From Alkalimonas sp. (GTDB lineage: Bacteria; Pseudomonadota; Gammaproteobacteria; Enterobacterales; Alteromonadaceae): DNA of 47,759 nucleotides. A model generated the notes under the pieces. That model saw only the letters and a program-made list of their open reading frames with translations. It did not search any database and was not told the DNA's origin. Positions 25,260 through 28,288 of the stretch are shown here, piece after piece. Position 1 is the first letter of the stretch; every line of letters begins with the position of its first letter. The DNA is taken from positions 1 to 47,759 of the forward strand of contig JAFIFR010000001.1 of NCBI GenBank assembly GCA_020831935.1. The letters run 5' to 3'. Made by a program: the position numbers and the translations under genes.

Positions 25260-27836
25260 TTAGAAGTTGAAGGTGTATCGGAGGGTGTAGGTCGCGCCCA
25301 GCCAGTCATGCACCGCGCTGGCATAACCATCCGTTGGTGATGACGCATAAGGGGGGTTCTTATCGGTCAGGTTACGTACCGCCAGTTGCACCCGGCCATA
25401 ATCACCAAAGTCATAGCCAGCACTGGCGTTCAACACCAACCAGGAGGAGACGGTCTCATTGCCACCCCAGCGGAAATCGCCATCGCCCATGCTGGCGATG
25501 TAGTTGGCCGTTAAACCCAGGTTCCAGTTGCCATGGCGCCAGTCTGTGCCAAAATCAGCGACCAGATCAGGACGCGCAATTTCATTGGCACCGCTTAAAC
25601 GCCCCAGCAAGTCTTGTGGCGGAGTGTCTGGTGTGATTTGGCGTTCATAGCTAAAGGTTTTGGTGGCATTGGCAAAGAAATTAAACTGACCATGTTGCTG
25701 GGTTGTCAGCCGGTAGTTCAGTTTGACATCCAGACCGTCGGTTTTTTGTTGGCCGACGTTAAAGAAGCCGGTGCGCAAGAACACCAGATCACCCTCGCTA
25801 CTGACGACACAGCCAAAGCCTGGCAAGTCGGCTTCATTGGTGACGGTTGGGGCGCTGCCACTTAAGCAGTTACGCAAGGTGGTGTTGGCGTCGACATCCA
25901 CAATGTCTTTATGGTCATAGCGCCAGTAATCTGCTGTGAATTGCAGGTTGTCGGTCAGGTTCCAGGAGAAACCAATGTTGATGGCTTCGGAGCTTTCAGC
26001 CCCCAGCTCTGGGTTGCCGCGGGTTTCTTGATCAAAGCTGACTTCATCATCGAAGCTGCCACAGAGCGCATCAAACTCTTCGCCTGGTCCGCAGTTGATG
26101 TAGCCTGTTGCCAGTGCCCGGCCCGCACCCAATTGAGACAGCGATGGGGCTCTGAAGCCGGTGCTCCAGGAAGCGCGCAGGATGAGAGCATCGGTGGCTC
26201 GCCAGCGCAGCGACAGCTTTGGATTGACATCGCCACCAAAATCGCTGTAGTGATCGTACCGAATGGCGGCAACCGCATCAATGTCATCGGTCAGTGGCAG
26301 GTTAAACTCGCCATAAAGCGCATACTGCGTCCGATCAGCTTGTGCATCGCGGGCACCCAAACCGTAAACGCCATCGGCCGCGGCAATGGCGGCGGGCGTA
26401 TCTTTAATGTCTTCGGAGCGGAACTCGCCACCAAAGACCGAGCTGACAAAGCCAGCTGGCAGCTCGAACAAGTCACCAGAGATGTTAAAGTCCAGGCTGT
26501 AGGTTTCTGAGCGGCCTCGGCGCGGTGCCAGACTACGAAGATTCGCCAGCGTTGCTTCACTGTTATCGCGACCCAGGTTGAATGGATTAAAACGCTCGTC
26601 GGCGATGGCGTTTAGTACGGCATCGCGATTAAAGTAGCCGCGGATATGGCGCACTTCATTTTCTGTCACGCCATAGGTTGCGGCCGCTTCCCAAAACCAG
26701 TCGCCAGCTTCCCCACGTAAGCCGGTCAGAATGCGGAATGACTCGGTATCATAGGCTTGTTGCCGGCGCTCGGGAAAACGGGTGCGAACGATAATGTCGC
26801 TGTCATTGGGGTTCAGCTCGCGCACATCGTCGGGCACCAGGCTGGAGTCTGGCGCAATGGTCACGGTGTAAGCCGTGGCTGAATCGTAGGCTGAGCCTTT
26901 GTTGCGCTGGTACATGCCCTCAGCAAAGAGTTCCATATTGTTATCCAGCTGCTGTAAGTGGCTTAGAGTGACTCCCAAACGCTCTGACTCGGGCTGAATC
27001 GCGCGTTCCATCACGTAGTCGTAACGGCACTCGGTGCCGCCGCGGACCGTATCATCCCCACACCAGGCTTCCGGGAAGTTTTGGCCATCGATGCCCAGGG
27101 AGGTCCGCAGGGCGAAAGTCACATCAATCGGGCGATCGGCATTGAACAATGCGTTGCGGTCAAAGTAATCGACCACCAGGGTGGTGTTGCTGTTGGCGGT
27201 GTTAAAACCACCGACATAGGTCAGGTTGTAGCGACTGAAGTCGCTGCTTTTGGTATCGTTGCCATACATCAGGGAGATTTCATGGCCTTCGACATCGTCC
27301 CGCAAAATAAAGTTAATGACACCGGCGATGGCATCGGAGCCATAAACGGAAGAGGCACCATCGGTCAGCACTTCGATGCGCTCAATCGCAGACATTGGAA
27401 TGGTATTGACGTTGACAAAAGAATCTGCGCCGTTGGCAAAGGAGTCGACCGCAACACGACGGCCATTGACCAACACTAGGGTAGAGCTGCTGCCTAACCC
27501 GCGCAAGCTGACGCCAGATGAACCAGCCGGCGCACCAGCGGCTGTTGCTGTAGCCCCGTTTTCGCTAAAAGTACCTGCGCTGGCTGCCTGAGGTAAATCC
27601 CGCAGAAAAGCACTGACGCTGTCATAACCGCGGTTGGTTAACTCATCCCGGCTAATAATTTGTACCGGATTGGCACCTTCCATATCGACACCACGCAGGC
27701 GGGAACCTGTAATGGCGATGCGCTCAACATCCTTAGCGGCGGCTTCGTCCTCAATGGCATAAGCGCCCTGGATCCCGAATAGGGCGGTTAGGGTTGCCAG
27801 GGCAACTTTACTAATACCTTTGTTGATGGTTTTCAT
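25260..27836 (-). CDS. TonB-dependent receptor
   Basis: Signal peptide; TonB box ERIAITGSR; plug motifs VSLRGLGSSSTLVLVNGRR, IERIEVLTDGASSVYGSDAIAGVINFI; C-terminal aromatic strand YTFNF. Confidence 0.97.
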   Translation of the reverse strand: MKTINKGISKVALATLTALFGIQGAYAIEDEAAAKDVERIAITGSRLRGVDMEGANPVQIISRDELTNRGYDSVSAFLRDLPQAASAGTFSENGATATAAGAPAGSSGVSLRGLGSSSTLVLVNGRRVAVDSFANGADSFVNVNTIPMSAIERIEVLTDGASSVYGSDAIAGVINFILRDDVEGHEISLMYGNDTKSSDFSRYNLTYVGGFNTANSNTTLVVDYFDRNALFNADRPIDVTFALRTSLGIDGQNFPEAWCGDDTVRGGTECRYDYVMERAIQPESERLGVTLSHLQQLDNNMELFAEGMYQRNKGSAYDSATAYTVTIAPDSSLVPDDVRELNPNDSDIIVRTRFPERRQQAYDTESFRILTGLRGEAGDWFWEAAATYGVTENEVRHIRGYFNRDAVLNAIADERFNPFNLGRDNSEATLANLRSLAPRRGRSETYSLDFNISGDLFELPAGFVSSVFGGEFRSEDIKDTPAAIAAADGVYGLGARDAQADRTQYALYGEFNLPLTDDIDAVAAIRYDHYSDFGGDVNPKLSLRWRATDALILRASWSTGFRAPSLSQLGAGRALATGYINCGPGEEFDALCGSFDDEVSFDQETRGNPELGAESSEAINIGFSWNLTDNLQFTADYWRYDHKDIVDVDANTTLRNCLSGSAPTVTNEADLPGFGCVVSSEGDLVFLRTGFFNVGQQKTDGLDVKLNYRLTTQQHGQFNFFANATKTFSYERQITPDTPPQDLLGRLSGANEIARPDLVADFGTDWRHGNWNLGLTANYIASMGDGDFRWGGNETVSSWLVLNASAGYDFGDYGRVQLAVRNLTDKNPPYASSPTDGYASAVHDWLGATYTLRYTFNF

Positions 27837-28012
27837 GCTTCTTCCTCACTTTGCTTAGGGTTGCCGTAGACGGCAATCTGATTGTAAATAGGTGACATCA
27901 TGGCTGTGCCAAAGCATGAGCAGATGCTGAAATTCAGCAACGGATGCAAGCGAGAGGTGGCGAAGAGCGTCGTGGTAACTTAAGGTAAGTTCAGGCTAAG
28001 ACAATAGACGAC

Positions 28013-28033
28013 ACCGCTGTCTGGCACAGCGGT
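28013..28033 (-). other. 8-bp RNA hairpin just downstream of the uORF stop
   Basis: Minus strand ACCGCTGT-gccag-ACAGCGGT, with no U-tract. Confidence 0.65.
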
Positions 28034-28037
28034 TGGG

Positions 28038-28124
28038 CTAGTTATTGAACCACTCGGATAGGTAGTAAGGGGGTACAAAAGGAGAGTTGCAGTAGCAGCG
28101 ACTTTGCGGTTGCGAAGCAGGCAT
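28038..28124 (-). CDS. Putative 28-aa leader peptide (uORF) of the TonB-dependent receptor: MPASQPQSRCYCNSPFVPPYYLSEWFNN
   Basis: AAGGAG, 7 nt, ATG (28124), open to TAG (28040-28038). Lies downstream of TATAAT and 201 nt upstream of the receptor start on the same strand. Too short for the ORF track. Confidence 0.6.
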   Translation of the reverse strand: MPASQPQSRCYCNSPFVPPYYLSEWFNN

Positions 28125-28157
28125 CGGGCATCTCCTTTTGGTTGATAACTAAACAGG

Positions 28158-28191
28158 ATTATAAGCTCGCTGAAAAGTCGTTGAGTGTCAA
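28158..28191 (-). promoter_or_regulatory. Promoter elements for the uORF-receptor transcript
   Basis: Perfect TATAAT at 28163-28158 and perfect TTGACA at 28191-28186, but 22 nt apart. Confidence 0.5.
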
Positions 28192-28239: not shown

Positions 28240-28288
28240 TTGACAGTTTTTAGGTTCAAACGTACATTTCAAACAGTTGTTTGAAATG
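28240..28288 (+). promoter_or_regulatory. Sigma70 promoter of psrA-fadE with an overlapping PsrA-type operator
   Basis: TTGACA (28240), 17 nt, TACATT (28263). Palindrome CATTTCAAACA-gt-TGTTTGAAATG (28265-28288) fits the PsrA motif CAAAC-N4-GTTTG. Confidence 0.85.

Follow-up and report, generated by a model that had tools for sequence, protein, structure and literature searches.

A conserved LSEWF leader peptide is a candidate termination-arrest regulator of predicted cyanophycin-scavenging genes in Gammaproteobacteria

A 28-codon leader ORF precedes a TonB-dependent receptor gene

A short open reading frame located upstream of a TonB-dependent receptor (TBDR) gene raises the question of whether it encodes a regulatory peptide and, if so, which signal this peptide would sense. 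Here, we addressed this question for a locus of Alkalimonas sp., within a stretch of 47,759 nucleotides analysed as a whole (hereafter, the window). The initial annotation had described, on the minus strand, an AAGGAG sequence 7 nt before an ATG, a 28-codon ORF ending with TAG, an 8-bp hairpin and a 201-nt spacer, and all of these were found where it had placed them. The leader ORF (28038..28124, minus strand, as are all features below unless indicated) starts with the ATG at 28124, encodes 28 amino acids and ends with the TAG at 28040-28038; it is a member of what we term the LSEWF leader family, and we suggest the name CphL or IadL for the leader. The AAGGAG Shine-Dalgarno (SD) sequence occupies 28132..28137, and a purine-rich SD precedes the leader in all seven loci of the genus. 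The receptor gene (25260..27836, ATG at 27836) encodes 858 amino acids with the Pfam plug and barrel domains.

The promoter is predicted from a -35 hexamer TTGACA (28186..28191), invariant in 7/7 genus loci. A TATAAT sequence had been proposed as well and is indeed present (28163-28158); however, it lies 22 nt from the invariant TTGACA and is intact in the window alone among the seven loci. The likelier -10 hexamer is at 28163..28168, 17 nt from TTGACA, in which the second position (A) and the sixth (T) do not vary across the seven loci. The neighbouring genes on the opposite strand are psrA and fadE. Just before psrA (28291) there is a palindrome, TTCAAAC-N4-GTTTGAA (28268-28285), with similar sequences in the seven genus loci; this is likely the PsrA operator for psrA-fadE, distinct from the leader promoter. 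A 29-aa ORF in another frame overlaps the leader (28042-28131, minus strand), its ATG overlapping the SD, and is found in 2/7 genus loci.

Within the leader ORF, RNA folding predicts that the segment 28077..28085 acts as an anti-SD by pairing with 28139-28131, which would limit ribosome loading on the leader, and this pairing is a consensus helix in the seven genus loci. At the peptide level, the same segment (28077-28085) is an extra, genus-specific Ser-Pro-Phe stretch, whose codons thus form the helix over the leader's own ribosome binding site (28131-28139). The 8-bp hairpin (28013..28033) begins 5 nt past the stop, has no U tract and is predicted to pause RNA polymerase; it is also predicted to fall inside the footprint of a stalled ribosome. 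The 201-nt spacer (27837..28037) is richer in C than in G (C about twice G in 78-nt windows) and constitutes a predicted rut/Rho-termination zone. No minus-strand intrinsic terminator was found in the window region.

Related leaders are patchily distributed

We collected 19 receptor homologues by protein search alone, with no motif used, and then read the DNA upstream of them. A related leader was present upstream of 11/19, namely the top 11, which come from four families, and in every case the small ORF ended with LSEW[FW][ND][NE]-stop; no such ORF was found upstream of the remaining eight (32-38% identical). Within the genus, start, frame, C-terminal motif and stop are kept in 7/7 loci, the window's own included, and the N-terminus varies freely. 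The proposal of a conserved leader peptide was thus borne out. Among the motifs suggested for a conservation check upstream of orthologous receptors (WFN, CxC and PPYY), the aromatic C-terminus was recovered, but CxC and Pro-Pro were not. The family consensus of the C-terminus is [YFH][YH]LSEW[FW][DN][EN], followed by UAG or UAA, which in the window corresponds to Y20-N28 and UAG (28038..28067), the arrest motif predicted from the codon table of 155 sites and from stop usage.

The genome from which the window comes carries four leader copies, which score 40-49 in a matrix scan (the next-best match scores 13). The further copies stand before TBDR-yfcC (contig C4, 16392), before two cyanophycinase-like genes (C13, 8190-8213) and before a cyanophycinase-like gene with a PPC domain (C368, 2279-2302). 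When 401 genomes of the order were searched with the pattern, 61 matches were obtained from 43 genomes, versus 6 with the reversed control. Scanning of a species-genome collection gave at least 122 loci, out of an estimated 350 or so, and these belong to over 20 named genera, among them Rheinheimera, Alkalimonas, Pseudoalteromonas, Thalassotalea, Aeromonas, Halomonas and relatives, as well as Microbulbifer, Saccharospirillum, Permianibacter and Wenzhouxiangella, and a metagenome scan gave at least 123 stretches with the leader pattern. One viral match was discounted, as it lies on the same contig as a chance metagenome match. Judging from these matches, there are hundreds of leader copies across Gammaproteobacteria (Alteromonadaceae sensu lato, Aeromonas, Halomonadaceae, Microbulbifer and others). 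Their distribution is patchy, since an even, class-wide sample of 401 genomes yielded the window's own genome and three single matches, i.e., the control level. As related genomes are not independent, all counts given here are descriptions rather than significance tests.

Selection acts on the peptide, and stop-codon use is biased

Most core residues were imposed by the search patterns, thus the informative positions are those left free. An in-frame ATG lies 12-49 codons upstream in 153/155 unique sites, as compared to 21 and 6 in the other frames, and the chosen start gives 24 codons, the modal length, in 98 sites. Two sites, L045 and L095, are chance matches without an ATG and out of context, and were excluded from later counts. 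The WSN position of the pattern was open to Thr, Arg, Cys and Trp, but Ser is found there in 154/155 sites, encoded by both codon families (110 TCN, 44 AGY). At position -9, 153/155 sites have Y, F or H; the distance from motif to stop is fixed across the family, and the third codon positions of the leader ORF are free. On these codon patterns, the leader ORF is genuine and conserved as a peptide, with selection on its aromatic C-terminus, and it is very probably a functional, translated uORF.

The choice of the stop codon is biased as well. A search allowing any stop in genomes of the order (n=61) gave 44 TAG, 15 TAA and 2 TGA; both TGA matches are out of context, in iadA-negative genomes, and are not genuine leaders. 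The same search in metagenomes (n=111) gave 82 TAG, 27 TAA, no TGA and 2 TGG. A UGA stop was thus found in no genuine leader copy. Among the long ORFs of the window's own genome, TGA ends 445/1495 and TAG 257/1495. The exclusion of UGA may reflect RF1-specific blocking or avoided read-through by Trp-tRNA, as in the leader PepNL.

Downstream genes form a predicted cyanophycin/isoaspartyl-dipeptide regulon

The downstream genes were counted at the 115/155 sites with at least 900 nt of downstream sequence (40 were too short and were left out). The first gene encodes a TBDR at 73 sites, an ABC binding protein at 17, a cyanophycinase-like S51 protein at 15, YfcC at 6 and IadA at one. Thus, 112/115 sites fit one regulon, and the three without an assigned gene are the two chance matches and L104. 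The latter (L104:8001-8027, also L168) comes from Microbulbifer, looks genuine and stands before a TonB receptor of 767 aa that is unrelated; it is the sole such exception and possibly represents a captured regulator. All four copies in the window's own genome match the regulon, as do 56/60 metagenomic sites with at least 600 nt downstream; the other four end in TGG or have no ATG.

The IadA proteins score over the TIGR01975 cut-off, and the YfcC proteins, annotated as basic amino-acid antiporters, over that of NF008611. The binding proteins are of the Lys/Arg/Orn type, with one of three tested scoring over the cut-off. The S51 proteins are below the TIGR02069 cut-off; among solved structures their S51 domains match cyanophycinase only, and the catalytic Ser and His motifs are kept. 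Two of the secreted cyanophycinase-like proteins (L120:6390-7781 and L196:2-1453) carry an N-terminal fusion to PPC domains, which resemble the collagen-binding domains of clostridial collagenases.

In the usual layout, the leader and TBDR-yfcC-iadA are divergent from a cyanophycinase-like gene, and second leader copies stand before secreted cyanophycinase-like genes or a receptor. In Aeromonas and Halomonadaceae the leader precedes a binding-protein gene and iadA; in Halomonadaceae it follows a run of astE, ABC transporter genes and a first binding-protein gene, so that the gene it precedes is a second one. Within one genus (L175-L179 versus L020-L024), the loci have either both the leader and the gene for the ABC binding protein or neither of them, in which case iadA lies directly behind the divergent gene. 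The leader was not found at the second cyanophycinase-like-yfcC-iadA clusters L185, L186 and L183, which have a different, longer upstream gene instead (receptor-like in L185 and L186).

In a sample of 134 genomes from six families picked because they bear the leader, iadA was present in 40/41 leader-positive genomes versus 9/93 leader-negative ones. In the single leader-positive genome without iadA, the operon runs off the contig. In the nine leader-negative genomes, iadA is either alone or accompanied only by yfcC, and these genomes yielded no variant leader. Furthermore, in a tree of 75 receptor sequences (FastTree, midpoint root), all 61 leader-preceded receptors form one clade (support 1.0). 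The window receptor belongs to a 22-member subclade (1.0) together with the receptors of complete clusters (L189, L190/L009) and cyanophycinase-adjacent ones; by this placement, the window TBDR belongs to the receptor clade found in cyanophycinase-yfcC-iadA clusters and has been relocated. The C4 receptor of the same genome groups with Alkalimonas sequences.

The initial annotation had missed that the leader is multi-copy, occurs in several families and is associated with cyanophycinase-like genes, iadA, yfcC and genes for ABC binding proteins. It is this gene context that suggests the likely ligand. As described in PMC9974463 and PMC10206079, beta-Asp-Arg is released by cyanophycinase; IadA splits it as well as further isoaspartyl dipeptides, and it can be imported by an ABC transporter of the Arg type. 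An extracellular cyanophycinase of Pseudomonas is reported to be induced by cyanophycin (PMC3235067). Taken together, the downstream genes form a predicted cyanophycin/isoaspartyl-dipeptide scavenging regulon. As IadA is described as promiscuous (PMC10206079), the regulon may serve dipeptides of damaged proteins generally.

RNA context after the stop resembles that of Rho-linked leaders

The spacer between the leader stop and the gene measures 59-431 nt (median 168, n=109); its length of around 170 nt exceeds what simple unmasking of the SD would allow. Folding of the first 50 nt past the stop is better than that of shuffled sequences (mean z -2.1, with 113/153 below -1), and in 20 leaders ending with NN or DN, double-sided changes are seen in 4/5 consensus pairs of the hairpin. 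A U tract follows the hairpin in 15/153 leaders only. Over the first 100 nt, there is more C than G at 144/152 family sites as compared to 304/653 control regions. Ribosome loading is expected to be limited, as the SD is weak in 111/153 leaders, and in 33 of the 42 with a strong SD (mostly from the window's clade) it is less accessible than in synonymous recodings. Scans of 151 upstream regions with ArgR, CRP, sigma-54, NtrC, TyrR and Fur consensus motifs gave no clear enrichment. In three raw RNA-seq runs for an Aeromonas homologue, coverage was thin, with depths of 1-4 in the leader and roughly 3-35 where the next gene begins; at such depth, neither a pile of 3' ends nor an attenuation step from a high leader to a low gene was seen.

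Several features of metabolite-sensing termination-arrest leaders are thus found together at the level of sequence signatures: a short uORF with a peptide conserved next to its stop, a pause hairpin, a C-rich, rut-like spacer without an intrinsic terminator, and downstream genes which, as inferred from their families, share one substrate. Such an arrangement agrees with the models of Rho-linked arrest at termination for tna and speF, as presented in PMC8429421 and bioRxiv 604074.

The leader may sense a beta-aspartyl dipeptide by arrest at its stop

The leader is likely a new arrest-type regulator, and the ribosome would probably arrest at or near its stop. We propose the following course of events. 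RNA polymerase would pause at the hairpin past the stop, while the leader is translated by a ribosome that loads only sparsely. If the ligand is absent, termination at UAG/UAA would let the ribosome depart, Rho would load on the C-rich spacer, and transcription would end ahead of the receptor gene. If it is present, the aromatic core YYLSEWF would sit in the exit tunnel and prevent release; the stalled ribosome would cover the 5' arm of the hairpin and the rut zone, thereby excluding Rho, and the receptor gene (or yfcC-iadA, the cyanophycinase or binding-protein gene) would be transcribed. A beta-aspartyl dipeptide, such as beta-Asp-Arg, is preferred as the ligand because it is the sole compound common to all regulated steps. 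To this complete reading, i.e., a ligand-induced termination-arrest leader which senses a beta-aspartyl dipeptide and induces the downstream genes, we give a probability of about 45%.

The same arrest-and-Rho mechanism could respond instead to a free product, L-Asp or L-Arg, which we consider rather unlikely. An extracellular cyanophycinase from Pseudomonas is reportedly weakly induced by aspartate, which counts for such a ligand, together with the Lys/Arg/Orn type of the regulated binding proteins and the annotation of YfcC as a basic amino-acid antiporter. The fungal arginine attenuator peptide (AAP) is described as a 24-aa, Arg-sensing uORF, and the LSEWF leader may bear a short resemblance to the AAP core. 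Both amino acids are also released by IadA (PMC9974463). However, none of the 112 assigned sites precedes a gene of Arg or Asp catabolism or biosynthesis; moreover, an isoaspartyl ligand is favoured over Arg because the astE-ABC run of Halomonadaceae sits upstream of the leader and the second binding protein and iadA follow it. About as improbable is a starvation sensor, in which the ribosome stalls by default, or on Tyr, Phe and Trp codons when charged tRNA is low, and is relieved by plenty, so that scavenging genes are on under amino-acid or nitrogen limitation, in the manner of CruR or PepNL. This relief-type logic has a precedent in these two leaders, the targets are indeed scavenging genes, the mean content of the 24-aa leaders is 3.6 Tyr, 2.2 Phe and one Trp, and avoidance of UGA could block Trp read-through as in PepNL. 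Counting of codons, however, requires neither the invariant L, S and E nor the fixed motif-to-stop distance; the rarity of U tracts speaks against an intrinsic terminator, the regulon is limited to one substrate class, and in the 151 upstream regions sigma-54 sites were not enriched and NtrC matches were marginal at most.

The remaining explanations are far less probable. That the invariant residues terminate at a free C-terminus would suit a released peptide acting in trans, e.g., on IadA or a transporter, but this quite improbable reading leaves unexplained the UGA exclusion, the post-stop hairpin, the C-rich spacer and the weak or occluded SD, as well as the separate copies before each transcription unit. 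Could the conserved element be an RNA structure or a protein-binding site, with the ORF incidental? The hairpin past the stop is conserved, and the 3' end of the ORF is able to pair with the bases that follow; however, such a hairpin spanning the ORF end and the stop was discarded as the cause of the conservation, since this pairing is no better than in shuffled C-rich sequence (-5.7 vs -5.2 kcal/mol). Ser from both codon families, the free third positions, the in-frame ATG and the lack of an Rfam match make this a very slim chance. Slimmer still is a metal sensor (CxC) or an EF-P sensor (Pro-Pro), as the initial annotation had envisaged from C10-Y-C12 and P18-P19 of the window peptide. Some Cys occurs in 70/153 members, but C12 is lost in 3/7 genus orthologues and Pro-Pro is found in just one of the seven; family-wide, CxC is present in 5/153, CxxC in 4/153 and PP in 3/153 leaders, RAPP in none. 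No Fur-box matches were found in the 151 upstream regions, and the gene context is that of peptide scavenging. As neither CxC nor Pro-Pro is conserved, we reject a role in metal or EF-P sensing.

LSEWF leaders differ from known arrest peptides

That the leader is not TnaC, SpeFL or CruR, as had been stated at the outset, applies to the whole family, in which W-x3-D, HIRR and RAPP each occur in 0/153 leaders. TnaC of E. coli tnaCAB is similar in its 24 aa, the modal length of LSEWF leaders, in a catabolic and uptake operon downstream, in a C-rich region past the stop and in arrest at termination, which is predicted for LSEWF (PMC8429421). However, TnaC is described as requiring W12, D16, Pro24, a UGA stop and RF2 (PMC8429421), whereas in LSEWF leaders W is fourth from the end, the last residue is E, N or D, and the stop is UAG or UAA; they are also not upstream of tnaA/tnaB. 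SpeFL of speF-potE shares an aromatic-rich C-terminal segment, UAG in E. coli, a pause hairpin near the stop, limited ribosome loading and a non-proteinogenic substrate that induces an enzyme and an antiporter, according to bioRxiv 604074. LSEWF leaders are shorter, have neither the HIRRxxH sensor nor Arg-Arg (0/153 in the last 24 codons), and are not upstream of speF-potE; their hairpin is past the stop, whereas that of SpeFL is over the ORF end (bioRxiv 604074). Since SpeFL is reported to accept all stop codons (bioRxiv 604074), UGA exclusion is not general for arrest leaders of this kind.

CruR (DUF2946) is likewise a uORF before a TonB-dependent transporter, with a C>G bubble and Rho-dependent control, but is described as a predicted exported protein of 145 aa that bears CxxC and RAPP and is switched off by copper (PMC9426467). 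CxxC is rare in LSEWF leaders, as given above, and the window peptide has no Pfam match. Unlike classical trpL/pheL-type attenuators, defined by a terminator hairpin with a U tract, LSEWF leaders mostly have no such tract. PepNL is found upstream of a peptidase gene (pepN). It resembles LSEWF leaders as a short leader arresting at its own stop; however, it has 14 aa and its arrest is relieved by UGA read-through by Trp-tRNA, while the LSEWF family avoids UGA (PMC11890864). As for the downstream genes, the described cyanophycin-scavenging clusters and the aot operon similarly combine cyanophycinase, isoaspartyl dipeptidase and transporters; in the accessible parts of these papers, regulation by ArgR is suggested or regulation is not addressed, and no leader peptide is mentioned (PMC10206079, PMC9974463).

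Novelty and significance of the LSEWF family

No published description of the LSEWF leader family was found in the openly searchable literature, and this widespread family is apparently undescribed. To our knowledge, few bacterial leader peptides sense a metabolite directly, TnaC and SpeFL being the worked-out cases, and the search for new ones is hampered when the ligand is not known. For the LSEWF family, the 9-residue motif, the coherent regulon and over 250 natural sites narrow the candidate ligands to a list short enough for one toeprinting panel. As a tentative joint reading of this analysis, LSEWF leaders would be the third family of bacterial arrest peptides that sense a metabolite, and the first for which the ribosome tunnel reads an isopeptide-bonded dipeptide (beta-Asp-Arg or another isoaspartyl dipeptide). 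They would block RF1-type termination and, with up to four copies in one genome, take the place of a transcription factor in the control of a dispersed cyanophycin-scavenging regulon. If true, the proposal would reveal how cyanophycin, a major store of fixed nitrogen, is detected by aquatic heterotrophs, would indicate the likely substrate class of an uncharacterised TonB-receptor clade and of YfcC, and could offer a genetic sensor for isoaspartyl dipeptides.

In Rfam, the window had no match at gathering scores, nor did ten homologous loci at E<=0.1, and Pfam and NCBIfam hold no family for the window peptide or eight other leaders. By exact peptide look-up, one of eight leaders is on record, as a hypothetical protein.
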